IMG/VR virus record: IMGVR_UViG_3300025929_000015
Span: 1-64,000 of that record
Source of the DNA: a virus
DNA: 64,000 bases
Reading direction: 5' to 3' (one strand)
The number at the start of each line of letters is the position of its first letter. Positions within the stretch are counted from its first letter, which is position 1. Below the pieces are notes generated by a model. That model saw only the letters and a list, made by a program, of their open reading frames with translations, ran no database searches and was not told where the DNA came from. A program made the translations under genes and the position numbers. Shown here in pieces: positions 19,391 through 62,722 of the stretch.

Positions 19391-20441
19391 CCTGGCCCGA
19401 ATTTCAGTGTTGCTGATGTTTTTGCTGGGTGGTCTGAGGCCCTGACAGGGCTCGGTTGTGAAGTCCAAAGCTACAATCTAGATGATTTAGGACCGCCTCT
19501 CTTTCTACGGGAGCTGTCTGCTGCCGACCGGGGAGGAAGACGACGAGGGGCGCCCGGAGATCCACAAGGCGCTGACCAACGACCAGGCCATCCACGCCGC
19601 GCTGCAGGGCATGTCCCACGCGCTGTACACCTACTGGCCGGACGTGGTGCTGTTCATCTCCGCGTTCTGGGTCACCCCCGCGCTGCTGCATGTCATCCGG
19701 CAGCGCCGCCACAAGATCGTCATCTTGCACACCGAATGCCCCTACCAGGACGACTCCCAGCTGGAACGGGCCCAGTTCGCCGACATCAACCTGCTCAACG
19801 ACCCGGTCAGCATCGACCGGTACGCCCGGCTGGACGGCGACGCGGTGTACATGCCGCACGCCTACCGGCCCGCCGTGCACCACCCCCGCCCGGCCGGGAC
19901 CGGCGCGGACCCCGCGCTGGCCGCGGACCTGGCGTTCATCGGGACCGGCTTCAAGTCCCGGGTTGAGTTCTTCGAGGCGATGGACCTGACCGGGCTGGAC
20001 GTGCTGCTCGGCGGGATGTGGATGGACCTGGCCGAGGACTCGCCGCTGCGCACCTACCTCGGCCACGACACCGAGCTGTGCGTGCACAACGACGAGACCG
20101 CCATGATCTACCGCAACGCCCGGTGCGGGATCAACTTCTACCGCCGCGAATGGGAAGAAGGCATGGCCCCGGCCGATGGCTGGGCGATGGGGCCGCGCGA
20201 GGTGGAGATGGCGGCCAGCGAGCTGTTCTTCCTGCGCGACCCGCGCGGCGAAGGCGACGAGCTGTTCAAGGGGATCCTGCCCACCTTCAGCGGGCCCGCC
20301 GAGGCGTCCGCGCTGCTGCGCTGGTGGCTGGCCCGGGACGGACTGCGCGCAACGCGGGCCGGTCAGGCGCGGGCAGCGGTCGCGGACCGGACGTTCGCGA
20401 ACCACGCCCGGCGGCTGCTGGCGATGCTGGACGACCGGTAG
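19370..20441 (+). CDS. GT-B glycosyltransferase (CgeB/Glyco_trans_1_2-like), split by a frame disruption at 19487-19493
   Basis: RBS GGAGGTG, then MRILIVHPG...YNLDD in frame 0. Continues RLSFYG...DLAFIGT...PREVEMAA in the +1 frame from 19494; 354 aa if joined. Confidence 0.8.
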
Positions 20442-20691
20442 CCTTCCGGAACTTCTCCGCCAGCGGGAGCAGGTCCGGGCGCTGCTCCCGCCAGACACCA
20501 TCCCGGCTGCGGAACAGCACCTGGGTGCCGTCCCGGCGGTGGATCAGCGACGGCTCCAGGCACACCACGCCCCACGGCCAGAACAGCCGCTGGTGCCACT
20601 CGAACGCGCTCGGCGACCCGAACGTCTGGTGACACTGCGCGCAGTGGCAGGTCCGCTTCCCGGTGAACGCGCACGTGCACATGCGCACCAT
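20287..20691 (-). CDS. Zn-binding protein (CxxC...F...AF.xH type)
   Basis: CHCAQCHQTFGSPSAFEWHQR motif. Confidence 0.55.
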   Translation of the reverse strand: MVRMCTCAFTGKRTCHCAQCHQTFGSPSAFEWHQRLFWPWGVVCLEPSLIHRRDGTQVLFRSRDGVWREQRPDLLPLAEKFRKATGRPASPAAAGRGSRTSGPRPLPAPDRPALRAVRPGPATSAAARTPRRAR

Positions 20692-20799
20692 GATAAATGT
20701 CCGGGCCGCCGGCCTCCTAATGCGTCCGCGCGCGAGAGCGCCGGCGGTCAACACGGCCCTGAACGGGCTCCCATCACTCAAAGCAAGGAGTGGAATACT

Positions 20800-21570
20800 G
20801 TGAGTCGTATTCACGGTCTACACCAGCAGGCCGCCTGAGAGAGCGATCTTTCAGAGTAAACCGCGAGAATTGCTGGGACACCCGAGTCACCTGGCCAGGC
20901 CACAACGTGGGGCGAAAGCCCGGGCGTGACGGCTTGAGAACTGGCCAGCAGAGGGGCAATCAGCAGCCGAGCCCGCCTGGGTCCGCCCGACGGGAAGGTT
21001 CAGAGACTATGTACGTGGCACCCCACGCGGGTGAAGATATAGTCCGGTCTGCATGGAGACATGCAGAGGCAGGCGGAAACGACCTGCCCGCCCGTTTTCA
21101 GGTAGCGGAAACGGGAAGTAACAAATACGCGCAACGGAATCGCCTACGTCGCCGTCAACGGCCCAGGTGGGGGCGCCGCCACCGGCTCCGCCGTCGCCTC
21201 GCCGATGGCTTTTCTTACTGACTGGAGTATTAATTTCACCGTCGCTAAGGTGGATGTCACCGCGATGGGGGACTCGAACCTGATCTACGTGGCCGGCCTG
21301 CCGGACGCTTCGGGGGACTTCACCGGGTTCTACGACACCGCGACCGCGCAGACCTACGTGGCCGCGACGGACGGCCTGAGCCGCAACTTCTACCTGTACC
21401 CGTCCACGATCGGGGCCCAGGGTACCGCTCCTGGTCAGTACTTCTTCGGAACGATCATCCCTGACTACTCCCTGACGGGTGGTGTCGGGGCCGCGGTCAC
21501 CATGAAGTCAACCTGGAACGCTGCCACGATCATCTCGCGCTACCCGGCGTCTGGTATCGCGGGTACGTAA
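20800..21570 (+). CDS. Major tail tube protein, spliced: join(20800..20817,21130..21570)
   Basis: RBS AAGGAG. Spliced frame reads MSRIHG|RNGIAYV...WSINFTVAKVDVTAMGD...YVAGLPDASGDFTGFYD. Lies upstream of the chaperone and tape measure. Confidence 0.88.
20818..21129 (+). ncRNA. Group I self-splicing intron, 312 nt, no ORF
   Basis: P AATTGCTGGGA (20868), Q AATCAGCAG (20958), R GTTCAGAGACTAT (20998), S AAGATATAGTCC (21034); P7 GACTAT/ATAGTC; P1 cggu|cu pairs with aggccg with U.G at the splice site; terminal G. Confidence 0.93.
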
Positions 21571-21576
21571 CCTGGC

Positions 21577-21715
21577 GGCAGCACCCCGGCCGTATCAATT
21601 CTGGGTTTCCCGTGACCAGTCTGGGCCGGGGTGCTGCCCCACGATCCGCTGTGCTGGCAGCACCCCGGCCGTTTCTCTCATGGAGGCCGTTCCCCTCTGG
21701 GCCAGGGTGCTGCCA
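21577..21715 (-). ncRNA. Two dual-spacer stem-loop units (A1, A2)
   Basis: A1: ggcagcaccccgg-ccgt-atcaattc-tgg-gtttc-ccgt-gaccagtc-tgg-gccggggtgctgcc. A2: ...ccgt-ttctctca-tgg-agg-ccgt-tcccctc-tgg-gccagggtgctgcca (one 7-nt segment). Confidence 0.8.
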
Positions 21716-21737
21716 TACCCGGTTGATGGGTTCTGTC

Positions 21738-21766
21738 AGGGTAACCCATGCGCGAAGTTAGGACAA
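21738..21766 (-). promoter_or_regulatory. Putative promoter for units A1/A2
   Basis: Minus strand TTGTCC-N17-TACCCT; same -35 type as the promoter at 16534. Confidence 0.55.
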
Positions 21767-21767
21767 G

Positions 21768-22337
21768 GTGAGCACAGACAGCTACGACCTGGATCTCGGG
21801 TCGGAACACGACGCGATCGTCGTGCAGGCCAGCTCCGACCGGGAGCTGGCCGGTGAGGTCATCACGCCCGGTGAGAGCATCACTCTCGCCGGGCGTTCTT
21901 TCCGTGTCGCGGAGAAGGTCGGCCTGATGCCGCTGCTCAAGTTTTCTCATGCGGCCGGGCTCAAGACGACCGATGAGCGGGCGTACGTGGCGATGTACCA
22001 GATCCTGCGGGACGTGATCCGCGGGGCGGACCCGGCCTGCGGCCGGTGCGAGGGATGCAAGGAGGCGGCCGGGGAGCCGACCGCGCGGGACTGCCTGACC
22101 GCGGACGGCGGGGACTGGGACGCGTTCGAGGACTGGGCGGTGGAATGCAAGGCGGACGCCGATGAGCTGCTGGACGTGGTGTCGGAGGCGGTCAAGGTGA
22201 TCACTGCCCGCCCTACCAAGCCAGCTTCCGGCTCCTCGCCTTCGTCGCCGCGAACTTCGCGGACCTCGACGGGCAGCAAGTCCGCACGTGCGGGCGGGGC
22301 CTCCGGGGGCTCACGCCGCGGGAAGCGTGCAACCTAG
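21768..22337 (+). CDS. Tail assembly chaperone (short form)
   Basis: Lies between tube and TMP; ends RPT plus a Ser-rich tail, typical of G/GT genes. Confidence 0.75.
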   Translation: MSTDSYDLDLGSEHDAIVVQASSDRELAGEVITPGESITLAGRSFRVAEKVGLMPLLKFSHAAGLKTTDERAYVAMYQILRDVIRGADPACGRCEGCKEAAGEPTARDCLTADGGDWDAFEDWAVECKADADELLDVVSEAVKVITARPTKPASGSSPSSPRTSRTSTGSKSARAGGASGGSRRGKRAT

Positions 22338-22519
22338 CCTGGTCGGTGCTGGCCGAGGGCAAGGACGGCGAGGAGCGCCAGATGCTGGCTGACGAGCTGT
22401 ACGCGGGCGGGCGCGGCGAGGCCAGCTCGCACGACTGGGCGCTGGATCAGCTGCGCCGGGACATGGCGGCGCGCGGGATGGACATGGAGGGCGGTCATGG
22501 CGCAGATCCGGCTGGATGA
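22211..22519 (+). CDS. Tail assembly chaperone -1 frame extension (GT-type)
   Basis: Start-less -1 frame PYQASFRLLAFVAANFADLDG...; overlaps at CGC CCT ACC. Confidence 0.65.
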   Translation, partial: PYQASFRLLAFVAANFADLDGQQVRTCGRGLRGLTPREACNLAWSVLAEGKDGEERQMLADELYAGGRGEASSHDWALDQLRRDMAARGMDMEGGHGADPAG

Positions 22520-22874
22520 GCTGGCGATCCGGGAGATCCTGGACGACCCGGGCGGGGAGGTGGCGCTGTGGCTGGAGGAGCTGGCGTCGCGGGCGGCCGG
22601 GGTGGCCCGGTCGACGGTGCGGGTGCGGACCGGGGAGACGCTCAGCTCGATCGCGACAGAGATGCATTACGGCCCGGATTACCTCTCCAGCGAGGTGCAC
22701 GCGAACTACGCGGTGTTCTTCCTGGAGAAGGGCACCAAGCGGCACACGATCCGGGCGCACGGCAAGTACTCGCTGGCGCACGACAAGCTGGACTACTTCG
22801 GCCCGGTGGTGGACCACCCGGGCCAGCCCCCGCATCCGTTCCTGACCACGGGGCTGTGGTCGCTGGCGGAGTTA
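22497..22874 (+). CDS. HK97 gp10-like tail-completion protein; apparent end at TTA 22872-22874
   Basis: YAVFFLEKGTKRHTIR...VDHPGQPPHPFL is the usual C-terminal motif. The standard-code ORF runs on to 23006, antisense to small ORFs. Confidence 0.75.
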
Positions 22875-23166
22875 GCCGCCGCCGCGGGCGCACCGGGTGC
22901 ACAGTACGCACCCGGGACGGGCCGGGTAGACCTTGCACCGCCGGCAGGTCACGATGCCGCCGGGGCGGGCTGCCAGCCGGGGAGCTGGTCGTGCTCGATG
23001 CTGTGATCGGCGAGTTCCTGCCAGGACTCGTGCGGGCCTGGCTGCCCGTTGACAAGCTTCTCCACCGCTGCCCCTTCGCTGCATGAAAGCAGGCTGGGCC
23101 GGGGTCTGGAGTCCGCTGCTGTCCTTTTCCTGCTTTGACTGTACCCGAACCGGGAGGTGACCCGCC

Positions 23167-26100
23167 ATGGCGAAACGCCTAGCAGAGGCGTATGTCTCGA
23201 TCGAGGCGGACTCCCGGCTGTTCCGCGCCGAGGCGCTGGCCGGGCTGAAGAAGGCGCTGGCCGGGGTGGAGGCGAAGATCCCGCTGACCGCCGACACCAA
23301 GAGCGCGATCACCCAGATCGAGATCCTGAAGAAGCGGATGGAGGCACTCGGCAAGCAGCTGGCCGAGGTGAAGATCGGCGCGGACGGCAAGCCGCTCGAG
23401 GCGACGGTGCGGCGGCTGCAGCTGAAACTGCTGGAGGTCGCCAAGACGGTCGCGTCGGTGACCATCGGCGGGGACACCACCAAGATCGACGCGGCCATCG
23501 CCCGGTCGGAAGCCAGGCTGGTGGGGCTGTACCGGCAGGCGTCCGCGCTGAAGCTGGACGCGGACGAGAAGGCGCTGGCGGCGAAGATCGCCAAGGCGGA
23601 GGCAGAGCTGGCCGGGCTGGAGGCGCAGGCGTCCGGGCTGCAGCTGGACGCCGACGACAAGGCGCTGCAAGCGAAGCTTTTCAAAGAGTACGCGCAGCTC
23701 GAGACGCTGAACCGGAAGATGTCGAACCTGCAGCTGGACGCCGACGACAAGGCGCTGCTGTCGAAGATCGCCACGATGAAGGCGCAGATTGTCCATCTGG
23801 AAAACGCGATGGGCAAGATGAAGATCCCCATGGACATCGTCGCCGCGAAGCGGAAGGTCGATTCGCTGAAGGCCGATATCGCGGTGCTGAAGGACGAGGC
23901 GTCCAGGATCGAGCTGTCCGCCCACTACGAGGAGCTGCTCGCGGCGATCGACGCGTCTGAGGCGCGGATCGCGGTGCTGAAGTCGGATGCCGCCGACATC
24001 GAGCTGATCGCGAAGGCGGTCGCGCTGGACGCTGCGGTGGACGCGTCCCGGGCGAAGCTGAAGGTGCTGAAGGAAGACGGGCGGGTCGAGCTGGTCGCCC
24101 GGGCGGTCGAGCTGAACAAGACGATCGCCGTGGAAGAGGATCTGCTGCGGGGGCTGAAGCGGGAGGCGGCCGACATCAGGATCGCCGGGCCGGACACCGG
24201 CGAGCTGGCCGGCGCCGAGCTGTCCATGCTGCGGCTGGAGAAGGAGTTCGGGGACCTGCGCGGCAGTGCCGGGGCGCTGAACGTGGCACTGGTCACCGGC
24301 GGGCGGAACTTCGGCCGGTTCGGGCTGGGCGTGCTGACCGCGCGGGTGGCGCTGTTCGGCGGGCTGAGCGCGGTCTCGGGCTGGCACCTGGCGCTGGACG
24401 GGGTCGTGGAGACGCTGGCCGTGGTGGTCCCGGCGCTGGTGACCGCGGCCGCGGGCCTGGCCGCGTTCGGGATCGCGGGCGCCGACGCGGCCCGCGCGGT
24501 GTATCAGCGGCTGCAGAACATCCACACGGTCGCCGACGCGACCAACAAGACGATCGCGCCGATGACCGGGAACCTGGAGGCGCTGCACGCCCAGGTCCGC
24601 CCGCAGGTGTGGCAGCTGTACGGGGACGCGATCGCGATCGCGGGCACCAAGACGGGGCTGTTCAACCAGCTGGCGGTCAGCACCGGCGGGGTGATCGACC
24701 GGTTCGCCGCGAAGATCACCGTGCTGGCCACCACCAGCGGCACGGGGCTGTCGAACTTCCTGAAAGTGGGCCAGCGGGACCTGGCCGAGTTCGGGCGGAT
24801 CGCGGCGTCGCTGGGCAGCGCGTTCGGCAAGCTGATCCAGGTCACCCAGCAGACCCACATCGCCGAGTACCTGCTGAACATCGTCGGCGCGGCCGCGAAG
24901 GCGTTCGACATCTTCACCAGGCTGCCGCTGCCGCTGCTGGCCACGGTGGTGGCGATCCACGGCATCTACCTGTGGTCCGGGCTGGCAGCCTCGGGCATCA
25001 TCGGGCTGCTGCGCCCGCTGGAGCGGATGACCGCCGCGGCGGCCGGGGCGAAGCTGGCCGGCACCGCGGTCAAGGACCTGGCCGACGCGGGGAACGCCTC
25101 GAAGTTCCGGACGCTGGGCGCCACGCTCTCCGACCTGGGCACGAACCTCAAGGCGCTGCCGGGCCGGGTGGTGACGCTGGGCAAGGCGTTCCTCGGGCTG
25201 TTCGCGAACGGGTGGACGTGGGCGGTGGTCGGCGTGGTCCTGCTGGCCGGCCTGGCGATCGCGCTGTCGCGGACCAAGAGCGCCACCGACCGGTTCATCG
25301 ACTCGCTGAACACCATGGTCTCCCGCGCGTCGGTGTTCACGGTCATCAATACCCTCGGCGCGGGCCTGATCCAGACCAACACCCGGCTGGCCGCCGCGAA
25401 CTCGGCGGTCGCGGCCGGGCTGAAGGCGATGCAGGACCGGATGCACTCGGCGTCCTCCGAGGCCGTGCAGTACGGCTCCAACCAGAACCAGCTGGTCAAC
25501 GACACGCGCGCCCTGGCCGCCGAGCATGACAAGCTGGCCGGCCAGCTGACCTTGGTCACCGGGCGGCTGACGTACCTGACCCAGGCGTTCGGCACCCAGG
25601 GACTGACCGGGGCGATGGCGCTGGCGCACCTGGCCGGGGTGAACCTGAACCAGCTGCTGTCCACCGACAACAAGGTGTGGGCGGCAGCGGTCCAGCAGAT
25701 CGCCGGGGTGGTGCAGGGCTACGCCAACATGGGGCAGGGCGCTACCCAGCTCGCCAACGACATCAACGTGCTGACCGTCGTCCAGTCCGACCAGCTGAAA
25801 AACGTGCAGACGCTGAACAGCGCGTTCGACGAGTTCACCAAGATCGTGTCCGGGCCGGTCACCGGATTCCTGACCCTGGCCAACACGCTGAAGCGGTTCG
25901 GCTCCGACGCGTCCGTGGCCGGCGCGCAGATGTCCGGGCTGGGCACCGGGATGACCGGGGTGTCCAAGAAGGTCACCGACGCGTCGCTGCAGCTGCAGAC
26001 CGACTTCCAGGACACGTTCAGCGCGGCCACCCAGATGGCCGACGCGATGCGGCTGACCGGGACCGCCTCGGCCCAGCAGGTGTCCGCCATCAGGAACGTC

Positions 26101-34037: not shown

Positions 34038-34454
34038 GTGACCGCGAACCTGCCGGTGCTGGACTCCACCATGCACGTGGCCGGCGTCATGTACGCCTGC
34101 ACGTTCGGGCTGACCACGGCCAGCAGCGGCCTGGTCACGTTCCAGGTGCCGGCCCCGGTGCAGTTCGCGTTCACCTTCGACACCGGCCGCACCCAGCCGG
34201 ACCCGGCGGTGAGCGTATACGACGTCACCACGGACACGTCCTGGTTCAACCAGGCCGCGACCGAGGCCGCGATCAAGTCCGCGCTGGACACGATCTGCAC
34301 GCAGATCGCCGCGATGCTCGGCGTCACCCAGGCCGCAGTCCAGGCCACCGTCACGGTCAAGCGGGCGTGGCGGGTCGCAGCCAACCAGGAAGGGGACGCG
34401 GCGCCGGTGCAGGTCCCGCCGTTCATCTACTCCGAGGCCATGGCCTACCCGTAA
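34038..34454 (+). CDS. Hypothetical tail-associated protein
   Basis: Operon context; ends with TAA 34452-34454. Confidence 0.6.
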   Translation: MTANLPVLDSTMHVAGVMYACTFGLTTASSGLVTFQVPAPVQFAFTFDTGRTQPDPAVSVYDVTTDTSWFNQAATEAAIKSALDTICTQIAAMLGVTQAAVQATVTVKRAWRVAANQEGDAAPVQVPPFIYSEAMAYP

Positions 34455-35015
34455 CTTCTTCAGCACGAACGCGAGCACCGAGCCCAGCGCGATCAGCATC
34501 GAGGCGATCATGATGATCACGACAGCGGTCTGGCTGAACCGCTCCCGGGCGGTGCTCACGTCCCCGGCGTGCTCCTTGATCCCGCGGGTCAGCGACTCGA
34601 TCGCGGTCAGCCGGGTCCGCACGTCGTCGATCTTTCCGGTCATCGCGTCGTGCGCGGTGCTGTACTCGGCCCGGGGCAGGTACATCTTGGTCTGGTCGGT
34701 CAGCGCGGCCCGGAACTCGTTGACGCCCTCGAACCGTTTCTCGCTGGCGGTCTCGGCCTTGGTGACGGCCTTCTCCGCGGCCGCCAGGGCCGCGGTGACG
34801 GCACGGCCGGCGTCGTCCAGCCGCTGGTTGATCAGCCGGTCCAGCGCGTCGATCTTATCGCCGAGGATCCGGTCCAGCACGGCCAGCTCGCGCCGGTAGC
34901 TGACCGTGGCCTTGTCGACCGCTTCGGTGGTCAGCTTGGTGGGGTCCGGGCGGGGCACCAGGTCGGCGCGTTCCCAGCCGCCGGTACTGGTGCCGGCCGG
35001 CTCTGGCTGGGTCAC
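34452..35015 (-). CDS. Coiled-coil protein with C-terminal TM anchor (187 aa); ends ...VLKK followed by TTA
   Basis: RBS GGAGG plus GTG 35015; strong GC3 bias. No standard stop until 31839. Confidence 0.75.
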
Positions 35016-35054: not shown

Positions 35055-35681
35055 ATGCCCGACGATCCGAGGCTGGCCCCGCTCGGTAAGTTCACGCCCG
35101 AAGGTGTCCTGACGCCGGGATACGGCGAGAGCTACTTGTTTTTCGTGGGTCGCGATGATGTTCACCAGATCCTGCTGTACCTGATCACCCATGAAACCCG
35201 CCGGTTCCGCCTGAATATGTTCGGCTACGATGACGCTCCTCTTAATGCCGCGATTCTGGTGCTGATGAAGAACCCCAACGTAGCGGTGCAGTGCACCCTG
35301 GACAGGTCTCAGGCGGGCGGGGCGACTGAGGGGAAGATCCTCGCGGCGGACGTGGCGAACAACCCGGATTTCTATAACAGCTTCGCCGTCGGCATGTCGG
35401 CTACGCACCAGATCAGTCACACGAAGGGCGGGGTGCTGTCGGCGCAGGGCCTGTGGTTCGAGGGCAGTACCAACTGGTCGGCGTCGGGAGAGGGTACCGG
35501 CATCAAGCTCGACCCAAGGGCCGTTCCGGCGCCTGGTTTCCGGTCTCAGAACAATACACTGCTGGTCAGCGCTAACGCGGTCAACCTGATCCAGTTTTCC
35601 GACCGACTTGACGTGGAGCACTTGATCGCGATTCAGCAGCAGGCGGCGAGGGCGGCGAAAGAGGTCGCGGCGGCTAAGTTA
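35055..35681 (+). CDS. Phospholipase D-superfamily (Nuc-like) protein; apparent end at TTA 35679-35681
   Basis: HTKGGVL...EGSTNWS HKD-type motif and QNN. Confidence 0.75.
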
Positions 35682-35685
35682 CCGG

Positions 35686-35716
35686 CTACGATAGCACCAC
35701 CGTGGTGCTATCGTAG
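35686..35716. promoter_or_regulatory. Perfect 31-bp palindrome, likely operator/promoter of the Arc-like gene
   Basis: ctacgatagcaccac-c-gtggtgctatcgtag; overlaps a TATCGT -10 element 6 nt before ATG 35721 (leaderless). Confidence 0.75.
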
Positions 35717-35720
35717 TGTA

Positions 35721-35963
35721 ATGAGTGACGACGAAACGCGCATGACGCTCCGATTGCCTGCCCGCATGCGTGAGCAGCTAGGGGCAACTGCTTCACAGAA
35801 TCGCCGTAGTGTCCACGCTCAGGTGCTCATCTACATCGAGCTGGGCCTGGCTATCGGCGACACCCGCGTTGAGCTGGAGCTGGCGGCATTGCACAATCCC
35901 GCGATCCGGGCAGCGGTGAAAGAAGCGAAGTCAGGCGGGGGAGCCGGTCCCCGCCCGCGATGA
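35721..35963 (+). CDS. Arc-family ribbon-helix-helix regulator
   Basis: RMTLRLPARMREQL...A.QNRRS.HAQV motif. Confidence 0.8.
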   Translation: MSDDETRMTLRLPARMREQLGATASQNRRSVHAQVLIYIELGLAIGDTRVELELAALHNPAIRAAVKEAKSGGGAGPRPR

Positions 35964-36451
35964 GCACGCCGGAAGCTCGCAGGAGAGCCCAGCAAGCGTT
36001 CCACGCGCGGAACCCAGGGTACCGGGCTGCACTGATGAAGAGGTACCGGGAGCGTAATCCTGAGAAGGCGCGCGAATCTACCGCAAAGTATGCAGCCAAG
36101 CCGGAAGTGAAGGCGGCCAAAGCGATCCGGATGAAGGCGTGGCGTGGAGCCAATCCTGAACGATCACGCCAGTACGTGCGGGATTATCAGCGACGCCGCC
36201 GGTCGACGGTGGTGGGTGACATCCGTGAAATCGAAGCATGGATGCGGGTACTCGAATGCGATCCCTGCGTGTACTGCGGCGGCCCTGGCGGCGAGATTGA
36301 TCACATCGTGGCCCTGGCCAGAGGCGGGAATCATTCTGTGGACAACCTGACGGGTGCGTGTAAGTCGTGTAATAGCAGTAAGCAGACGGCAGGACTCCTG
36401 CGCTTTATGCTCCGGCAGGCCCAGAATAATAAGCCCGCGGCCGCCACGTAA
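35960..36451 (+). CDS. HNH endonuclease
   Basis: CVYCG...IDHIVALARGG...NLTGACKSCNSSK. Confidence 0.9.
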   Translation: MSTPEARRRAQQAFHARNPGYRAALMKRYRERNPEKARESTAKYAAKPEVKAAKAIRMKAWRGANPERSRQYVRDYQRRRRSTVVGDIREIEAWMRVLECDPCVYCGGPGGEIDHIVALARGGNHSVDNLTGACKSCNSSKQTAGLLRFMLRQAQNNKPAAAT

Positions 36452-49863: not shown

Positions 49864-49938
49864 CGCGGGGTCGCCTAGCTCGGTATGGCATTGGGCTCAT
49901 AACCCAAAATAACGCGGGTTCGAATCCCGCCCCCGCTT
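49864..49938 (+). tRNA. tRNA-Met(CAT), initiator type, no encoded CCA
   Basis: Acceptor CGCGGGG/CCCCGCT with unpaired C1; anticodon arm TTGGG-CTCATAA-CCCAA (3 G-C pairs); T arm GCGGG-TTCGAAT-CCCGC; TATACT upstream. Confidence 0.85.
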
Positions 49939-49940
49939 CT

Positions 49941-51139: not shown

Positions 51140-52123
51140 TTATTCACCCTCTTTCGGTGCTACCAATTCCAACTTGACGCTCTCACCCTCGCGCAGCGGC
51201 GGCCGGGCCCCAGCCCGGGCATAGTCTTCGCGGACCTGTTCAGTGTCCAGGGACCGGCGACTGGAGACGGTCCAGCGCAAGACGTACGGGAAGTTCTCAA
51301 GCTGGACCTCGCCGCGTCCGCTGGTGTTGGGCCGCAGCGCGTCCAGCGCCCCCTTGGCCAGGGCTTCCTCGGCTTCGGCCTGCTTCTTGGCCTCCCGCGC
51401 GGCCGCCAGCCGCTTGGCCCATCCGGCCGCGTCCTGGTCCTCGACCAGCAGGACCGACCGCTCGTCCCGGTCGATCACATGGCCTTCCCAGCAGGTGCCC
51501 GAGAACGGGCAGTTCCGGCATTGCGCCGAGTCGGGGGCGAAGTCGCGGGCCAGCCATTCCAGCGGGGTTTCGCGGACCTGCTCCAGCCACTGCATCGCCT
51601 CGGTGACGGCGGCGTAGTCGAACGGCCCGGACCACATCCACGTGTTCCCGGAGTCGCGGACCAGGTAGTCCAGCTGGACCTGCTCCACGTCCAGGCCGCG
51701 GACGATCAGCGCCGCCGCATAGACTTGCACCTGCCAGAGGTGGCGGCGCGGCGGGCCGTTCAGCCGGTAGTTCGCCACCTGCATGTCGTAGCCGACGGTC
51801 TTGACGTCCCGCAGCACCGGCCGGACGTACAGGTCGGGGTGGCCGAGCACCCCGCCGAACTGCACTTCCTCGTTGATCACCGAGTCGGCGGGGATCAGGC
51901 CCTCGTCCCGCATCCGCAGCAGCGCCCGGTCCACCGCGTCGTGCACGGCGGTGCCGATCACCGCCTGCACGCTACCGCTGGGCTTCTCCGGCGGATACCC
52001 GTGGACGGTGTAGCCCGCCCGGCGCCGGCACCCACCGAGGTCCGATACGCCGAGGGCGCGCTGGCGGCTCCGCGGCCGTTCCCAGTCGGCCTTGAGTAGC
52101 AACTCCGCAGTAGACGGAATCAT
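51140..52123 (-). CDS. PD-(D/E)XK Cas4/RecB-like exonuclease
   Basis: S.LGGCRR, GTAVH, GHPD...DVKT, QVQVY and CRNCPF...C (4-Cys cluster). Confidence 0.88.
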   Translation of the reverse strand: MIPSTAELLLKADWERPRSRQRALGVSDLGGCRRRAGYTVHGYPPEKPSGSVQAVIGTAVHDAVDRALLRMRDEGLIPADSVINEEVQFGGVLGHPDLYVRPVLRDVKTVGYDMQVANYRLNGPPRRHLWQVQVYAAALIVRGLDVEQVQLDYLVRDSGNTWMWSGPFDYAAVTEAMQWLEQVRETPLEWLARDFAPDSAQCRNCPFSGTCWEGHVIDRDERSVLLVEDQDAAGWAKRLAAAREAKKQAEAEEALAKGALDALRPNTSGRGEVQLENFPYVLRWTVSSRRSLDTEQVREDYARAGARPPLREGESVKLELVAPKEGE

Positions 52124-52307: not shown

Positions 52308-52310
52308 GGC

Positions 52311-53984: not shown

Positions 53985-54004
53985 GGTGTTCCTCCCGTGG
54001 GCGG

Positions 54005-54055: not shown

Positions 54056-54151
54056 GCACGTCCATTGTACCCTGGTTGTCTCTGGCTGTCTTCCATGCTA
54101 GCGTGGGGGTACGACAAAACGGAGCGTGGGTACGGCAAAACGGGAGCCCGC

Positions 54152-54829: not shown

Positions 54830-54985
54830 GCATGCCCGCGCCCGCCCCGGAAGTAGTGCTGGCCCGCTGCGCGGTCTGCCGGTTCCGGATGGACCCGGTG
54901 CTGCCGCTGCACGGGTACCGCACCCACCCGTGCTGCCAGCCCGGCGAGGTATCCCCGCGCTGGGAACCCGGCGACACCCCGCTGC

Positions 54986-55153
54986 GCGGGCCCAAGAGGA
55001 AAACGGCCCACCGGGCCCAAAGAGCCAACGGCCCGCCGCCCACAACGGGTACGGAACCAGCCAGGGTGATAACGGCGGCGGGTACAGTAGCGGGATGACA
55101 GGCAGCCCCGGCCCAGGGACCAACCCCACAAAGATGACGGCCGGGGCTGCCTG
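54986..55153 (+). ncRNA. Three dual-spacer stem-loop units (C1, C2, degenerate C3)
   Basis: cca-agaggaaa-acgg...cca-aagagcca-acgg; cca-caacgggt-acgg-aaccag-cca-gggtgata-acgg; caggcagccccggc-cca-gggaccaa-cc-cca-caaagatg-acgg-ccggggctgcctg. Confidence 0.75.
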
Positions 55154-55870
55154 ATGCGTGACCTGGCGGAGGCGTGCGAGGAGCTGCTCACCCAGCTCCA
55201 GGTGTTCGACCTCGGCGCGGCTGACGACGACCGGGCCGACGCGGGCCTGGTCACGGTAACGTGCCTGATCGCCGAGGCGGACACCGACCCGGGGCTGCGC
55301 CGCTCCGGGCTGCTGGAATCCCGTCCGCCGTGGAACGCCAACGTGGCCGGCGCCTACCTGTCCGCCCACCAGCTGGTGCGCCGCCTGGAGGCGTCGCTGC
55401 GGCTGGCGGTGGCCGGGCACCCGGGCCGGGCGCGCGGCGGGTCGGATGCGAATACCGCCGAGGCCATCCGGGCGATCGCCCGGATGGCCACCGCGGCCAG
55501 CGTGATCCCCACCGCCGAGCCGGTCTCCCGGTCCGACCCGGACGGGCGCAAGCTGACCGTGGCGGAACTGGCCGCGATCGTGCTGGACCGCGCGATCCGC
55601 GTCATCGGCCAGCTGCCCGCCATCGACGAGTTCCCCAAGTGGGAGAAGATCCGGGCCGGCCCGGACGGGCTGCCGCCGCGCTGCCCGAACTGCGGTACGT
55701 TCTCGCTGCGGGTCGCGGTGCAGTCCGGGGTGGTGGTGTGCGTGCTGCCGTCCTGCGCCGACCTGGACGGGAACAGTCCCCCGCAGGCGCACCTGGACGT
55801 CTCGCGGCTGGACGGCAGCCCGGCGCTGGTGTGGCGGGACGGCACCGTGCAGTGCCCGCCGGCCGCGTTA
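55154..55870 (+). CDS. Actinophage Zn-ribbon protein (238 aa); apparent end at TTA 55868-55870
   Basis: SRPPWN and RCPNCGTFSLR...VVC..PSC motifs. After TTA the frame is antisense to other genes. Confidence 0.65.
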
Positions 55871-56032
55871 CGGCAGGTCCCGGAGCGGGATCCAGCCGTC
55901 TGGGTAGTCACCCCGGCTGATGGCCTGGGCCAGGCAGATGGCCGCGAACGGCCTGTACCCGCGCGCCCGGCCCGTGACTACCGCCAGGGCCTCGTCCGGA
56001 TCTTCGTCCAGTTCCAGGAGAGGGTCTTTCAT
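55868..56032 (-). CDS. 54-aa hypothetical protein
   Basis: MKDPLLELDEDP...RDLP*; last ORF of the minus-strand run. Confidence 0.5.
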   Translation of the reverse strand: MKDPLLELDEDPDEALAVVTGRARGYRPFAAICLAQAISRGDYPDGWIPLRDLP

Positions 56033-57255
56033 GAGTTCTCGAATTCGATGTCGTCGATCATGTTCTGCCTTTCCCTTTCGTCACGGATTACCTCCCCAGA
56101 GTTTCCTGCTGAGCACAGGAACGCATTCCTTGCAGACCTGGAACTGGCACCACCATTTCAATTTCTTCCCGCAGTTCAGGCATCGCCCGGTCATTTCCTG
56201 CGCCGCCGTGCGGCGATACCCCTGGCGATCATCCGTAGCTTCTCCTCGAAGCAGGGTGTACACAGGCCATGATTGCGGTTGGCCACCTGAGGCGTGATCT
56301 CGTTCTCGCATCCTGCGGTCTTGCACTGCACCGTGCCCTTGCCCATGATTTCTCCTAATTTCCTTCCCGCTGCCGCCGTATCTCGGCGAGACCTTCCGGG
56401 GTGAGCAGCCAGCCGACGCACCGGCCCGTGCGGTTGCTGAGGTACCAGTCGCGGTGGCATCTGCCGCAGTGCTGGGCGGTAAGCCACCGCCCTTCATGTG
56501 CGGCATACGTGAGCGTGAAGAGGTCGAGAGGGCAGAGCCCGACCTGGAGGGCGCCGCCCCACAAGATCCAGTTGGCCTCACCGAGCGTCATGTACTCCGT
56601 CATCTGACCTCTTTTCCTTTCATGCGTCACCCGGCCCCCGAGGCCCTGCTCAAGCCCACCTGCGAACGTGGTTCCCGGCTGCCCGGAACCGTAGGTTTGA
56701 GCAGGACCTCCGCGGTCAGCTACTTCTTCTTGGCCTTGGTCTTGCGGTACCTGTTCAGGTCCCTATTCGCCTGGACCAGCGCGGCGGTAAGCCCGAAGTG
56801 GTCCGGATCTCCCCGCCTGAGCTGTCTCAGCGCATCTGCTATGTCGTTGCAGATGTCAATGAGCCGCTGCTCTTCCTGGTCTGCGGCCATCGTTACGGTT
56901 CGATCGGGCCGCAGAACGGCTGGGTCATGTGCGGGGCGATCAGCCGGCAGGCCAGCACGTGGTGGCCGGGCCGGCAGTGCGGCCGGAGCGGGTTCGCACG
57001 GTAGGCGGCGACTGCCCAGCGGATGATCGTGGTCATGGTTTTCCTTCTTCCTTCTCGGTGAATGACCGGGAATACTGGTCGTCGGGAGTGTAGGACGGGT
57101 AGTATTTCGCGTCGATCCAGGGATGCGTGCCCGGGTCGGGCACGAAGACGACCAGGCCGAACCACGGGGTCCGCAGGTACAGTGAGCAGTTCCCGTACTC
57201 GTCCCCGCCGTGCCCGGCGTACCAGCCGGTGGACGGGCCCTCCAGCAGGAGCCGC

Positions 57256-57789
57256 CTACCGAGGCTTCGCATGGCCGTCCCCTTTCGCTCGCCGGATCCT
57301 GGCCTTGGCGGCCAGGAACCGGACCGTATCGGCGAAACGGCCGCCTACCTGGATCTCACCCGAGGCGCTGAAGTACTCGGCGATCTCGCCTGGGCGGTCC
57401 CGCCGCTTCTCGCAGGCCCACAGCCGGCCGTCGATATCAGCACACACGGCGACGGCGATCTCGATCCGGTCCGGCCGCAGGCTGGGCCGCGGTCCGGGGC
57501 CTTCCGCGGCCCACCCTTCGATCTGGAGGAGATACGCGTACGGCGGTTCGCCCGGGTGCTCCTCCAGGTGCTGCCCGGCCAGCCCGGCCAGCATCATCGG
57601 GTACTGGTCCGGATCGACCGCCGGGTCGATGCCGGCCAGTACCCGGCAGCTGACTTGCTGGCCGTCCCAGCCCAGGATCATGAACTGGTGCAGCGAATCC
57701 CACTGGTCGTGCTGCTCGATGACGCCGCGGGTGTAGGCGGCCATGACTTCTTCCGGCGCGGATTTCTTGATCTGTTCGTTCTCATCCAT
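57256..57789 (-). CDS. Hypothetical protein
   Basis: Codon bias; first gene of a minus-strand run of small ORFs. Confidence 0.55.
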   Translation of the reverse strand: MDENEQIKKSAPEEVMAAYTRGVIEQHDQWDSLHQFMILGWDGQQVSCRVLAGIDPAVDPDQYPMMLAGLAGQHLEEHPGEPPYAYLLQIEGWAAEGPGPRPSLRPDRIEIAVAVCADIDGRLWACEKRRDRPGEIAEYFSASGEIQVGGRFADTVRFLAAKARIRRAKGDGHAKPR

Positions 57790-57892
57790 AGATCTCACCG
57801 ATCGGTCGGTGTCTCCTTTTCTCGTTGTGGTCCGTTCCGGTTTCGCACTTTCGCACTGCTCTCCTTTCCGTCTTGGGTATACGCTGAGGTTC

Positions 57893-58465
57893 ATGAATGT
57901 GGATGTCAGCCAGCTCCAGCCCGGCGTCTTCGGCGTCTCGCATGGCGGCGGCCTGGCCGGAGAGCTTATCCGCCACGCGACTGGCTCCTGGGCCGGGCAC
58001 GCGTTCCTCTACCTCGGCGGCGGGCGGCTGGTCCAGGGCCAGCCGCCCGCCGCCGCGCTCGCGCCCGCGGACAGCCACGGCGACGCGATCTGGGCCTGGC
58101 GGATGTGGGACCAGCTGCGCGCCGTGACCGGCTGGACCGCGGACCAGGTGACCGCCGCGCAGCGGCGGGTGGTGGCCCGCGGACACGCCCTGACCGGCTG
58201 CCGGTACGACTTCGAGGCGTACGCGGGCTTTTCCCTGGAAGTGCTCAAGCTAGTCAACGCCGGCCAGCTCGACCCGGTGTTCAGCAGCGACAGCTACCGG
58301 GTATGCAGCGCACTGGTGGACGACGCGGAGGTCTTCGGCGGGGTGCCGATGACCTACGTGCCCGCCGACGGGCCGGGCGTGGCCCCGGGCGGGGCGATGA
58401 TCGCCGCCAACCTGGTCGCGCCCGGCATGCTGCTCGGACTGGCCGAACGCAGTGAGTGGATCTAG
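57893..58465 (+). CDS. Permuted papain-like NlpC/P60 (YiiX-like) enzyme
   Basis: LQPG, GHAFLY, G.RYDF and VCSALV, with His before Cys; leaderless. Confidence 0.75.
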   Translation: MNVDVSQLQPGVFGVSHGGGLAGELIRHATGSWAGHAFLYLGGGRLVQGQPPAAALAPADSHGDAIWAWRMWDQLRAVTGWTADQVTAAQRRVVARGHALTGCRYDFEAYAGFSLEVLKLVNAGQLDPVFSSDSYRVCSALVDDAEVFGGVPMTYVPADGPGVAPGGAMIAANLVAPGMLLGLAERSEWI

Positions 58466-58607
58466 CCGTCAGCCTCCGGCCGGCCGATGTTGTAGCCGGC
58501 CTCAGCTTCGGCGGCCCAGGCTTCCAGCTCCGCCTCGGTGATCACCTTTCCGGTCTTCGTGACCGGCGGATGGCAGATCAGGCAGCCGGGATCGCCGCAT
58601 TCCTTCC

Positions 58608-59096
58608 TCACGTGCTGATCCCCGCCGCGCGGGCCCGCGCCTCGGTGGCGGCCGCCTTGGCATCGGCGAACTGCCGCGCTTCGGTGAACTCCTTCCGCGC
58701 CTTCTCGGCGTCCTCGCGGGCCCGGGTCAGCCGGGACAGCTCAGCGCGGTCTGCGTCGCTCAGCCGGGGCATCGCCCCGTCCAGGCGGTACCAGGCTTCC
58801 TGCGTGCGCTTGCCGGTGTCCTTCCATAGCACCAGCGCGTTGCCGCTGCCCGCGTGGAACCCGGTGATCACCGCATCGCGGCCGTCCCGGGTGGTGACGG
58901 GCAGCTCGAACCGCACGTCCTTGAACTCGCGGGCCTTGTTCTCCAGCCCGTAGAAGCTGGGATCGGACAGCTCCTGGCCGTCACCCAGGTCCACCCGGAA
59001 TTTCACCCTGTTGATGTAGTCACTGCTGTTCTCGGCCAGCTCGACCGGGTAGTCCCGGCCGAGCACCGACACGGTCAGGCCGGTGTACCTGTTCAT
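58608..59096 (-). CDS. Hypothetical protein
   Basis: RBS GAGGAG; codon bias. Confidence 0.6.
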   Translation of the reverse strand: MNRYTGLTVSVLGRDYPVELAENSSDYINRVKFRVDLGDGQELSDPSFYGLENKAREFKDVRFELPVTTRDGRDAVITGFHAGSGNALVLWKDTGKRTQEAWYRLDGAMPRLSDADRAELSRLTRAREDAEKARKEFTEARQFADAKAAATEARARAAGIST

Positions 59097-59399
59097 TTCT
59101 CTCCTCTCGTTGTTTCGCTGACGTCGCCATCGGCCCATTCGATCCGGACGCTGACGGGCCGCCCGGCGTTGATGTCGCCTTTGCTGGGGACATGCAGCGC
59201 CCCCGGGCCGGTGACGACGGTGCGCCAGCATTCGTCCCCCGTCCCGGCATCGGCCAGGATCACGGTAAACGGGAAGCAGCTGGCGGGCAGGTCGTGAAAC
59301 GGGATGCTGCCCACTGGCGTCCTCCTTCCTGCTTGCTTCCTGGCAAGCAGAACAACGCCCGGACCCCAGGGGTCCGGGCGTGTTCCTCCTGGCAGGATG

Positions 59400-60506
59400 C
59401 TACGGCTGGGTGTAGCTGAACGCAGGCAGCGGCACGGCCACTGCCGGGTCCCCGGGCGGTGGCGCCCCGTTGGGGCACCACAGGTTGACGATCACCTGCT
59501 GCTTGCCGGTGGCGGGGACGGCGACCGTGCCGCTGAACTGGTTCCCGCCGTACAGCTGGGTGTAGCTGTACTTCTGCCCCTGGACGGCGGTCACCTCGGC
59601 CAGCACGGTCCCGTCCGCGGCGGACAGCCGCCATCGCAGGGAGCCGGGCAGCCAGGTGAACTCGGCGGTCAGGCTGCCATGCCCCGCCGGGATGGCGAAC
59701 TGGCTGCCCGGTACCAGCACGTGCCCGGGCGGGGTGCCCTGCACCGAGCTGAGCTGGTCGGCGTAGTAGCCGAACTGGACGAACGCCGGGGCGCCGGCGA
59801 TAGTCCCGGCCGAGTAGAACTCGATGTCGATTTCCTTCTGCCCGCCGGGGCCGCCCTTGCTGGCTGCCCAGTAGGTGAACAGTCCCAGGCACAGCCCGGG
59901 CGGCAGTGCGGTCAGGTCGGCGCCGATGCTCCACCGGTAGGTGCCGTACCCCCAGGTCGAGGCGTTCGCCGCGATCCCCTGGTCACCCCGGGCGGAGTCC
60001 GCCTCCGCCCCGGCATACAAGCCGGGTGACAGCTGCGCGGCGTGCAGCGTCAGGACCTGACCCAGCGCGTCCACGGTCACGTTGGCCGCCTTAGGCTGGC
60101 CGGGCGCGGTGCCCCAGTCCTCCAGCTCCCACAGGTGATTGCCCCAGGACACCGCGTTCCCCGCCTGGGAGGCAGGCGGCTCGGCCCCGCCGTAGCCGGA
60201 GACGATGGCCTTGCCGGCTGACGGGGCGGCCCCGGCCAGCAGCGCGGTGCCGTTGGCGTTGGACTGCAGCGCGTACGACCCGCCCTGGTCATCGGTCAGC
60301 GCCACCACCGCGGCCGGGGTCCCGGACGGGGTCACCGTGTAGCTGGTGGTCGCGGTGGCGATCTCCCCGGTCGCCGGGTCCTGCGCGGTCCCGGTCAGGT
60401 TGACAGTGAACACCGCCGCCCGGTCCGCGTAGTTCGCCGTCACCTTCACCGCCTCCCCCGGGGCGTAATTCGTCTTGTCGGTGGACAGGGACAGGCTCAG
60501 GGTCAT
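59400..60506 (-). CDS. Ig-like domain plus GH16-like glycoside hydrolase
   Basis: TDKTNYAPGE; WGYGTY, GLFTY, EIDIEF (GH16 catalytic motif) and VNLW. Confidence 0.8.
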   Translation of the reverse strand: MTLSLSLSTDKTNYAPGEAVKVTANYADRAAVFTVNLTGTAQDPATGEIATATTSYTVTPSGTPAAVVALTDDQGGSYALQSNANGTALLAGAAPSAGKAIVSGYGGAEPPASQAGNAVSWGNHLWELEDWGTAPGQPKAANVTVDALGQVLTLHAAQLSPGLYAGAEADSARGDQGIAANASTWGYGTYRWSIGADLTALPPGLCLGLFTYWAASKGGPGGQKEIDIEFYSAGTIAGAPAFVQFGYYADQLSSVQGTPPGHVLVPGSQFAIPAGHGSLTAEFTWLPGSLRWRLSAADGTVLAEVTAVQGQKYSYTQLYGGNQFSGTVAVPATGKQQVIVNLWCPNGAPPPGDPAVAVPLPAFSYTQP

Positions 60507-60649
60507 GGTCGACGCCTCCTTCGCGGGGTCAGCCGGACCCGGGGCCGCAGCCGGGTGGCCGCAAGTACCGCGTAGACCAGGGTCACCCCGCTGATCACGT
60601 ACGTGCCCAGGAAATGGTACATGGGCATGTACCAGCCGTAATTCTGCAT
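60503..60649 (-). CDS. Small single-TM protein between GT2 and GH16
   Basis: MQNYGWYMPMYHFLGTYVISGVTLVYAVLAATRLR...; RBS GAGGGG. Confidence 0.55.
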   Translation of the reverse strand: MQNYGWYMPMYHFLGTYVISGVTLVYAVLAATRLRPRVRLTPRRRRRP

Positions 60650-60666
60650 GATATTTCCCCCTCGGG

Positions 60667-61785
60667 TCAGATGGACGTACCGGCACCCCAGCTGGAGCTG
60701 CGCTTGCGCAGCATCCGGTACAGCGCGCGGATGTAAACGAACTGGCGGGCGACCGAGTAGAACAGGTCGGGGACGATCAGCAGCGTCGCCACGATGGCGA
60801 CGATCCCGGCCTTGCGCGCCTGCCAGGTCTGCTCGATGATGATGAACAGCAGGCACAGCGCGTACAGCTTCGCGTTCAGCGGGTTGATGCCCTGCCAGCC
60901 GAACAGCGCGAACGACCAGGACAGGTAGAACGCGGTCAGCGGCAGCGCCAGCATCCCCAGGTAGGTGGCGGACTGCCGGACGATCATCCCGCGCGTCTCG
61001 TGCCCCCACCCGTACCGGACCAGCTCGGCCAGCGTGCCGTGCTGCCAGCGCAGCCGCTGGCTCACCCAGTCCCGGACGGTCTCCATCACGTCGGTCAGCA
61101 CCCGGCAATTCCCCGGCGCCAGCACCGGGATCCGCAGCCGTTTCAGCGCCAAGGTCAGCTCGTAGTCCTCGACCAGGCTGTGCACGTCGTACACCTGGCC
61201 GTCCGGGCGGGTCGCGGCCACCGCCCACAGCACGCACACCCGCATCCCCCACCCGGTGCCGGACAGCACGTCGGCCCGCGGGCGGCGGTTCTGGTGCTGG
61301 GCGAACCGGGCGAACTCGGCCCGCTGCAGCGCGCCGAGCAGGCCGCCGCCGGGGCGGCCGTGGAACGTCGCGCCGACGCTGCCGTAGCCTTTCTCCAGCC
61401 ACCGGATCGTGTTGGCGATGAAGTCGGGGTCCGGCACGGAGTCCGCGTCGAACCCCATCACGATGTCGGTGTCATCCAGCCGGGGCAAGATGTGCGCCAG
61501 CCCGATGTTCAGGTTGCCGGCCTTGCGGTGCGGGTTGACCGCCGTCTGGGTGATGCTCACCCCGTACGGCGCGACCTCGGCTGCGATCCGGTTGGCCAGC
61601 TCGCGGTCGGCTGTGTTGTCGAGCAGGACATACAGCTCGTCCGGGGGCCTGGTCTGGCCGAGCACCGCCTCCACGGTCCGGCTGATCGTCCCGGTCTCGT
61701 TGTGGGTGGGGATCACGACGACCACCCGGTCGGCCGGGTCGGTCAGCAGCGGACCGAAATCCCTTCCTCGTCTTGAATGGTTCAA
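60667..61785 (-). CDS. Processive GT2 polysaccharide synthase (IcaA/PgaC/cellulose synthase-like)
   Basis: IPTHNE, KAGNLN, DAD, VED and QRLRW motifs, plus C-terminal TMs. Confidence 0.9.
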   Translation of the reverse strand: MNHSRRGRDFGPLLTDPADRVVVVIPTHNETGTISRTVEAVLGQTRPPDELYVLLDNTADRELANRIAAEVAPYGVSITQTAVNPHRKAGNLNIGLAHILPRLDDTDIVMGFDADSVPDPDFIANTIRWLEKGYGSVGATFHGRPGGGLLGALQRAEFARFAQHQNRRPRADVLSGTGWGMRVCVLWAVAATRPDGQVYDVHSLVEDYELTLALKRLRIPVLAPGNCRVLTDVMETVRDWVSQRLRWQHGTLAELVRYGWGHETRGMIVRQSATYLGMLALPLTAFYLSWSFALFGWQGINPLNAKLYALCLLFIIIEQTWQARKAGIVAIVATLLIVPDLFYSVARQFVYIRALYRMLRKRSSSWGAGTSI

Positions 61786-61939
61786 AATTTCTCCTTTCGC
61801 AGCGGAACGTGGCCGTTCCCCGCGGCGCCCGCCCGCAAGCGGGCGCCACGGCCAGCGGCCTCAACCCAGGTGTCACCAAAGCAGGAACACTATTTTTCCC
61901 CGCCTGCCCCGCGGGGGCCAGCCCTGACTTCGGTGACCT

Positions 61940-62536
61940 TTACGGCTGACCCGACGATTCCTCCTGCCCTTTCAGGTAGCGCAGCGCCCGGTGCTCATCC
62001 CAGCCGAACGTCTCGTGCAGCCCGGCGGCCAGCATCTCCTGGTATGCCGGGGCGGGCGCCAGCGGTTCGACGTCGGCCATCCGCCACGGCGCGCCGAACG
62101 TGACCACCGGGTGCCCGCGGAGCCTGCCCACGCAGCTGACGGTCTCGTAATGGCCGGGCCCGGCGGACAGCTGTGCCCCCGGGGTGAGCGGCAGGTCCCA
62201 GTCCGTCCCGGGGACCTGCTTCATCTCCTGGGCCATGATGTCACAGAGCTGTGCCGGGGCGATCAGCCAGGCCCGGGCCGCGGTGATGCCGGCTGCGTGA
62301 GGGTCATACAGGGCCCGGCCGCCGCCCCAGAACGCCGACCGGGTGGCGAAGTACATCCGGCCGGGCAGCCAGGCAGCCGTCGTGTCGACCGGATCGGCCG
62401 GGTCGCGGGCCCCGTGGTGGACCCGGCCGGTCTCGGCCAGCACACCGCCGTGCAGGTAGTACCGGAACCGGCGCCAGGTCATGTTCGACCCGTAGGCCGC
62501 ATACCAGACCAGGCTCGTGTCCTTTCCTGTTCCCAT
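61940..62536 (-). CDS. Gamma-glutamylcyclotransferase-like protein
   Basis: VWYAAYGSNM motif; own RBS AAGGAG. Confidence 0.75.
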   Translation of the reverse strand: MGTGKDTSLVWYAAYGSNMTWRRFRYYLHGGVLAETGRVHHGARDPADPVDTTAAWLPGRMYFATRSAFWGGGRALYDPHAAGITAARAWLIAPAQLCDIMAQEMKQVPGTDWDLPLTPGAQLSAGPGHYETVSCVGRLRGHPVVTFGAPWRMADVEPLAPAPAYQEMLAAGLHETFGWDEHRALRYLKGQEESSGQP

Positions 62537-62539
62537 GGT

Positions 62540-62722
62540 TAACTCCTTTTCTCCGCTGCCGCGCTTGCGCCGTTTCTCGGCGGTATCAGCGCACCTGTCG
62601 CTGCAGAACCTGCTGCGCGCCAGCACTGCGAAATATGGCTTCCCGCAGCACTCGCATCTCTTCTCGATAAGTTTCTTACGGCGGGTATATGTCGCGCCTT
62701 TCTGAGGCCCGCGTTTTCCCAT
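62540..62722 (-). CDS. 60-aa treble-clef Zn finger; apparent end at TTA
   Basis: CECCGKPY...RFCSDRC. Confidence 0.7.

Follow-up and report, generated by a model that had tools for sequence, protein, structure and literature searches.

The triplet TTA raises a question in the window analyzed here, which is the first 64,000 nucleotides (64 kb) of the uncultured phage record IMGVR_UViG_3300025929_000015: does it still encode leucine? A first-pass annotation of this DNA had proposed that UUA acts as a stop or recoding signal instead, and our results support that proposal, as we found neither leucine-containing extensions shared by homologs nor TTA at conserved internal leucine positions. Judged by sequence comparison, TTA marks the ends of complete proteins, is interchangeable with standard stop codons among orthologs, and is never internal. 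Since TTA is never found inside genes and lies either at homologs' stop positions or in a frame-breaking insert, it most likely stops or redirects the ribosome. The complete record, labelled G000, is linear, 99,376 bp long, 69.5% G+C, and 83% complete by CheckV. A head-tail adaptor, a Neck1-like protein, a CgeB-like glycosyltransferase, and open reading frames (ORFs) of 2,058 and 1,563 amino acids (aa) indicate a tailed phage.

TTA usage in the genome and its relatives

We called genes over the whole record with a codon model of our own, which gave 144–148 genes and ∼26,650 codons. The leucine codon counts are CTG 1730, CTC 305, TTG 51, CTT 28, CTA 21, and TTA 4; the stop codon counts are TGA 106, TAG 20, and TAA 18, and a further seven of the ∼148 genes (∼5%) end at TTA. 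The credible genes hold seven in-frame TTAs and one more at a frame break, with no internal leucine among them, and across ∼26,600 codons TTA is absent from internal conserved positions. The six triplets listed by the first-pass annotation (19487+, 22872+, 34452−, 35679+, 55868+, and 62540−) are indeed TTA, each in frame with an ORF that has upstream coding signal. Its claim that these were the only ones was incomplete, as it missed 63761(−) within the window; an eighth lies beyond the window at genome position 80836(−), seven codons ahead of a TGA. No TTA stands at a conserved internal leucine in G000, nor in its two whole-genome relatives.

All 263 TTA triplets on both strands were scanned by coding-frame score upstream and downstream. 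The best-scoring upstream frame was free of stops at only six (22872+, 34452−, 35679+, 55868+, 63761−, and genome position 80836−), and at all six the in-frame coding score downstream was negative. Four of the six combine this end of coding signal with the lack of any standard stop over the next 40 codons, a combination that occurred at ∼20 of 451 positions (4%) for the control codons, the 18 rarest that were tested (CTA through AAA). Outside this tally stand the 62540− TTA, which joins two coding stretches, and the 19487+ TTA, which sits at a frame change. A relaxed scan of the genome found no additional in-frame TTA in any best-scoring frame. Across the sites, the bases found right after the triplet are G, C, C, C, A, T, and C. 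We considered a +1 slip onto a stop, with TAG or TAA directly next at 19487, 22872, and 62540 and at 2, 4, and 12 codons on at 34452, 35679, and 55868, respectively. These stops were not counted as evidence because about half of all TTAs precede A or G by chance.

The two related genomes, G001 (119 kb, 97% complete) and G002 (104 kb), were fetched whole, and both are 63.6% G+C. CTA, ATA, and TTG each occur 50–120 times in their coding frames, and TTA occurs in frame 6 and 10 times. The downstream score was negative at all 16 of these TTAs vs. 23–70% per control codon and about a third for the pooled controls. Two G001 sites, 61520 and 61553, were rejected as antisense shadows of the neck gene. 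In G003, an unrelated 210-kb phage, eight of nine in-frame TTAs lie at the ends of coding signal, which brings the sum for the three genomes to 24 of 25.

Orthologs exchange TTA for standard stops. For the tape-measure protein, the end reads ..GAH TGA in both G000 and G001 but ..GSH TTA in G002; the gene at 51140–51970 closes on TAA in G000 and on TTA in both G001 and G002; and a third swapped gene has a TTA end in G002 and a TGA three codons later in G001. We compared 208 ortholog C termini: in 193 the ends differ by no more than 10 codons, and the other 15 have extensions longer than that, 6 of them with TTA at the junction. As a separate observation, the 2,058-aa tape-measure-like gene of G000 carries in-frame 3-nucleotide (nt) insertions (GTC and GGC) that are polymorphic in rhizosphere populations at window positions 25019 and 28563.

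Protein ends at the TTA sites

The features around the TTAs that end or separate coding stretches in the window are as follows.

22497..22874 (+), tail-completion/Neck1-like gene (phrog_5 match), ending ..GLWSLAE and then TTA 22872–22874
34452..35015 (−), coiled-coil protein with a C-terminal membrane helix, putative start codon, ending ..AFVLKK and then TTA 34454–34452
35055..35681 (+), PLD-like (HxK) nuclease gene, 208 codons and then TTA 35679–35681
35685..35717 (+), perfect 15-bp hairpin/palindrome separating that TTA from the ATG that follows; minimum free energy −30.2 kcal/mol, z-score −4.3
35721..35963 (+), Arc-like ribbon-helix-helix (RHH) gene that starts at an ATG of its own and shares the frame of the PLD gene; PF03869, 21 bits vs. 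a cut-off of 20.4
55154..55870 (+), gene of a phage family of 216–238 aa, ending ..GTVQCPPAA and then TTA 55868–55870
55868..56032 (−), convergent 54-aa ORF whose TAA is the complement of TTA 55868; coding score 10.2 over its last 40 codons
61940..62536 (−), cyclotransferase-like gene with an AYGSNM motif, ATG at 62536, in frame with the zinc-ribbon gene
62540..62722 (−), zinc-ribbon (treble-clef-like) gene, 60 codons and then TTA 62542–62540; weak PF09889 match
63761..63763 (−), TTA 4 codons before the TGA of gene 63746–64738, in the overlap with the next gene's start

Homologs stop with TGA, TAA, or TAG at the TTA positions rather than continuing with leucine, and the refuting outcome named in the first-pass annotation did not occur. 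For five sites (22872, 34452, 35679, 55868, and 62540), homologs place the protein end at the TTA or within two codons of it. The predicted ends draw on homologs together with coding statistics.

For the neck gene, read-through would add 43 codons rich in alanine, glycine, and proline, and the G+C content at third codon positions (GC3) is 0.91 upstream of the TTA and 0.77 downstream. Five homologs end ..SLQxEF/DV, and the G001 and G002 orthologs end LWALQGQV TGA; these ends lie two codons past the TTA position. Under the standard code, the membrane protein would gain 870 codons that lie antisense to tail genes, and the homolog L068 reads ..LYVAKK TGA at the equivalent point. In variant strain X5, the bases flanking TTA 34452 are changed and the triplet itself is not. 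The 63761 site is compatible with a protein end but uninformative, because no ortholog extended to the C terminus. A group I intron (Rfam RF00028, 65.4 bits) lies at window positions 20807–21066 (+), between the glycosyltransferase and the Neck1-like gene in the tail-gene region.

The family at 55868 allowed the stop column itself to be compared. Read-through would add 133 codons, and the homologs (n = 65) span just residues 1 to ∼238. In all seven longer homologs, leucine occupies the exact column at which the short ones end, and the sequence beyond it is unrelated. In DNA, this column is TAA, TAG, or TGA at 14 loci and TTA at three (L050, L054, and L064) in two sub-clades; among the loci whose DNA was read, TTA is the only sense codon found there. 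By analogy with those three, the leucine codons of proteins P0003, P0004, P0006, P0025, P0031, and P0035 are probably TTA.

Because TTA is the complement of TAA, one triplet ends two convergent genes at two places in the window. TTA 34454–34452 shares its three bases with the TAA of the convergent gene 34038–34454, and TTA 55868 does so with that of the 54-aa ORF. A third such pair had been claimed in the first-pass annotation; its ORF, 61991–62542 (+), was rejected as a convergent gene and is an antisense shadow of the cyclotransferase-like gene.

At the two remaining sites, TTA parts unrelated genes of which the downstream one has its own ATG: PLD and Arc-like at 35679, zinc-ribbon and cyclotransferase-like at 62540. 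The 36 closest of 46 IMG/VR homologs of the PLD gene were walked to their stops; all have a standard stop 0–23 codons beyond the end of homology, and none of the 36 is fused to another domain. Across PLD loci L002 to L047 the PLD gene is common, and no common neighborhood was found. Only at 35679 is there a strong hairpin near the TTA; this palindrome may serve the Arc-like gene as an operator, or may act as a roadblock in the RNA. The next gene after the Arc-like one, at window positions 35960–36451, encodes an HNH endonuclease (PF01844), and the palindrome and the two genes could form an autoregulated RHH-HNH cassette.

At 62540, the context AAGGAG TTA ACC ATG puts TTA in the usual stop slot of coupled genes. 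The downstream protein had no Pfam match, and we take it to be cyclotransferase-like from our own reading of its AYGSNM motif. It has 1,345 homologs, of which the best 150 listed are ∼190–230 aa long; in most of those 150 the match begins within the first 25 residues, aligning just past ATG 62536, and the zinc-ribbon part is matched by none of the 150. As these homologs are stand-alone proteins that start where this gene has its own ATG, the upstream zinc-ribbon ORF is a separate gene. The zinc-ribbon's own IMG/VR homologs were set aside as uninformative, the only matches being from phages of 30% G+C.

The frame break in the glycosyltransferase gene

The TTA at 19487 lies at a break in the reading frame of the CgeB-like glycosyltransferase, as had been described, and homologs read across the junction uninterrupted. 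Three features define the site.

19370..19486 (+), N-terminal 39 codons of the glycosyltransferase (MRILIVHPGP...SYNLDD), frame A
19484..19493 (+), putative recoding site GAT TTA G GAC, with TTA at 19487–19489, proposed take-off codon GAT and landing codon GAC
19491..20441 (+), glycosyltransferase body in the +1 frame, PF13524

The DNA reads GAT GAT TTA G GAC CGC, and relative to homologs the insert is 7 nt, TTAGGAC. In homologs of ∼353 aa, the N terminus is fused to the enzyme body and ..SYNLDDRLxFY.. is unbroken. Because they read straight over the junction, the TTA is consistent with a recoding signal. IMG/VR contigs L073, L074, and L079 and runs X2 and X3 all have an identical junction, and downstream of it third codon positions of the +1 frame account for 11/13, 4/4, and 3/3 of the differences between strains. 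With the insert kept and substitutions confined largely to third positions, the glycosyltransferase is under selection. These substitutions also support, indirectly, the translation of both frames into one contiguous protein. The first 39 codons are rich in rare A/T-ending codons (GC3 ∼0.5 vs. 0.95 in the rest of the gene).

Other phages, too, have TTA-led inserts in this loop of the enzyme: CGA TTA CGC in L102, GAT TTA GGC in L119, and AAT TTA C GAC in L113. Proteins P0069 and P0070 have a DD-LD-R variant there, and by analogy their leucine codons are probably TTA as well. This surface loop is a hot spot for TTA-led inserts. In L102, L105, L113, and L119, the inserts are independent, 4, 6, 6, and 9 nt long, and lie ∼100 nt into the gene. 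Take-off and landing codons that one peptidyl-tRNA could pair with are present in G000 (GAT/GAC) and in L102 (CGA/CGC), and L119 and L113 offer near-matches only. A hop would work as follows: peptidyl-tRNA-Asp on the GAU before UUA would re-pair with the GAC 7 nt downstream, skipping UUAG and restoring both the frame and the family sequence ..YNLDDRL... A +1 shift after UUA is read as leucine could take the place of the hop at this site.

How UUA may be resolved

We consider it probable that UUA is undecoded in this phage and its relatives and is resolved as termination. In the absence of a usable host tRNA-Leu(UAA) during infection, UUA would become an empty A-site codon, which the host may handle as a termination event, either through a release factor of broadened specificity, as in organelles, or through drop-off or rescue. 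Both alternatives of the first-pass annotation, a stop by reassignment and a codon that is hungry or unassigned, are compatible with the data. tRNA-Leu(UAA) was not found in G000, G001, or G002; an RF-1 (release-factor) domain was found in none of G000 to G004; and a search of the phage genomes for peptidyl-tRNA hydrolase (Pth) and transfer-messenger RNA (tmRNA) found neither. As these phages lack an RF-1 domain, Pth, tmRNA, and a UUA-reading tRNA, the terminating agent must be the host's, so translation would end at UUA with the protein released by host machinery.

The sole tRNA of the record is a tRNA-Met(CAT), at window positions 49864–49939 (+). In G003, an array of 39 tRNA genes (L175, G003:67000–76000) includes Leu CAA, GAG, and CAG and no Leu(UAA) or Leu(UAG); it covers the rare codons AUA, AGA, AAA, and CAA.

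The host is plausibly among the bldA-type actinobacteria. Homologs of the glycosyltransferase in genome contigs come from a mixture of Actinomycetota and two Gammaproteobacteria-labelled metagenome-assembled genomes at no more than 53% identity, and no in-frame TTA was found in those cellular loci. Isolate phages and plasmids searched with megablast and tblastn gave no matches to the phage. Near-identical DNA occurs in rhizosphere and soil metagenomes of several studies, and the listed sequencing runs that hold phage DNA include no RNA dataset.

Several observations weigh against termination at UUA. Only ∼5% of genes are affected, and two TTAs so close to normal stops (4 codons at 63761, 7 codons at genome position 80836) fit either meaning of the codon. 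No downstream RNA structure or 3′ context is common to the TTA sites. The fold of 19460–19545 is no better than that of shuffled sequence (z-score −0.14), and no stimulatory hairpin was found at the proposed bypass site. In G003, the one remaining in-frame TTA has a positive downstream score, and two ortholog extensions of at least 40 codons have no TTA. We know of no bacterium that terminates at UUA, and ribosomes that meet an undecoded sense codon usually stall and do not release the protein, as with the unassigned codons of Micrococcus luteus.

Alternatively, the uncultured host may have a class-I release factor that reads UUA, which would make TTA a constitutive fourth stop for host and phage alike. 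This overlaps in outcome with UUA left undecoded, but it names the agent, and we hold it possible although clearly the less likely of the two. It would suit the ending of essential structural genes in TTA (the gene of the neck protein in G000 and that of the tape-measure protein in G002), a use of TTA as a stop near the levels of TAA and TAG, and the recurrence of the pattern in three further phage genomes. Organelles that terminate at UUA also carry substitutions in RF2 (Ser204) or mtRF1a (PMC12574857), and the two proteins searched against isolate phages, the portal-region protein and the glycosyltransferase, gave no relatives, as might be expected for an unsampled host lineage. With no release-factor domain in G000 to G004, however, the change would sit in a host that nobody has described, and an efficient stop ahead of the glycosyltransferase body would cost most of the enzyme unless bypassing were efficient.

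In a further explanation, which we judge improbable, a bldA-like rare tRNA reads TTA as leucine, the extensions and the PLD-RHH and zinc-ribbon-cyclotransferase fusions are real conditional products, and TTA has been kept only where a C terminus or linker is weakly constrained. Rare codons do lean toward gene ends, with a negative downstream score in 23–70% of cases per control codon and about a third when pooled; two TTAs stand just ahead of normal stops, and adpA has a UUA in an interdomain linker (PMC10732093). Yet one extension would run 870 codons antisense to tail genes, extensions are noncoding in composition, and no extension or fusion is shared by any homolog. The sense codon standing in the stop column is TTA in every case, and G001 and G002, at 63.6% G+C, lack internal TTAs too, although TTG and CTA each number 50–120 there.

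It is very unlikely that the sites stem from errors in sequencing or assembly, or from a dying genome that recently acquired stop-loss and frameshift mutations, although the record is metagenome-assembled and 83% complete. This explanation is contradicted because independent contigs carry the same sites, including identical triplets and the 7-nt insert in assemblies of other samples. TTA 22872 is kept in one IMG/VR contig, and of the contigs from rhizosphere runs of different studies, X2 and X3 span 19487, 22872, and 34452 and X2 also spans 35679, with no listed change there. The third-position substitutions downstream of the frame break and the presence of TTA at the same column in diverged homologs also speak against decay, and chance stop-loss would yield other sense codons too.

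Known systems and significance

A search of the literature found no paper on TTA as a gene-ending codon in phages or bacteria. A sense codon ending translation has been published only for mitochondria and plastids, and redirection at UUA for one Streptomyces phage gene. The labyrinthulean mitochondrial code is NCBI table 23. UUA is a stop in labyrinthulean (Thraustochytrium) mitochondria, in pedinoflagellate plastids, and in the mitochondria of Marsupiomonadales and Pseudoscourfieldia (PMC12574857). There the evidence is comparative, as it is here, but these organelles have their own altered RF2 (Ser204) or mtRF1a, whereas the phage has no release factor; further differences are the small share of its genes affected (∼5%) and its use of UUG as a normal leucine codon (51 uses).

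In Streptomyces, bldA encodes the single tRNA-Leu(UAA), which is developmentally limited, and adpA is among its targets. High G+C content and extreme rarity of TTA are shared with the phage, as may be a poor decoding of UUA at some host states. In bldA targets, however, TTA lies inside the ORF and is read as leucine, whereas all TTAs here are at homolog-defined ends or the frame break. Lak and crAss-like phages read TAG or TGA as an amino acid and carry suppressor tRNAs. Gene calls with table 11 fail for them as for this phage, but their change is from stop to sense with phage suppressor tRNAs, whereas here it would be from sense to stop with no phage factor found.

As for bypassing, T4 gene 60 has a take-off codon, then an undecoded codon, and a matching landing codon, as we propose here; T4 bypasses 50 nt and has both a nascent-peptide signal and a hairpin, whereas the gap here is 4 nt and such signals are not evident. 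UUA-triggered bypass has been proposed for terminase genes of phiHau3, StrepC.1, and an S. catenulae prophage (Antonov et al. 2023, PMC10732093; Smith et al. 2013 cited therein). In both cases a TTA-led insert (7 or 10 nt there and 7 nt here) breaks the frame of a conserved gene, and insert-free homologs have the two flanks adjacent. The present case differs from phiHau3 in that the gene is a glycosyltransferase in an unrelated phage, the synonymous take-off and landing codons GAT and GAC are only 4 nt apart, no stem-loop or Shine-Dalgarno signal was found, and several other phages have TTA-led inserts in the same loop.

Standard gene callers misannotate such phages, giving fused genes, long nonsense C-terminal tails, and “split” enzymes. 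To our knowledge, the case for bypassing has so far come from T4 gene 60 and, tentatively, from phiHau3, and the repeated TTA-led inserts at one glycosyltransferase loop offer several natural test cases of short-range translational bypassing. Should UUA prove to be a true fourth stop in uncultured high-G+C soil bacteria and their phages, read by the host's release factor, a prospect that we put forward only tentatively, it would be the first sense-to-stop code change outside organelles. Together, TTA and TAA would in that case make up a strand-symmetric stop in which one triplet serves convergent genes, and the same codon would have been co-opted to trigger short-range ribosome hopping. Termination at a sense codon shared by phage and bacterium would point to hosts with altered decoding and could aid the linking of phages to their hosts.

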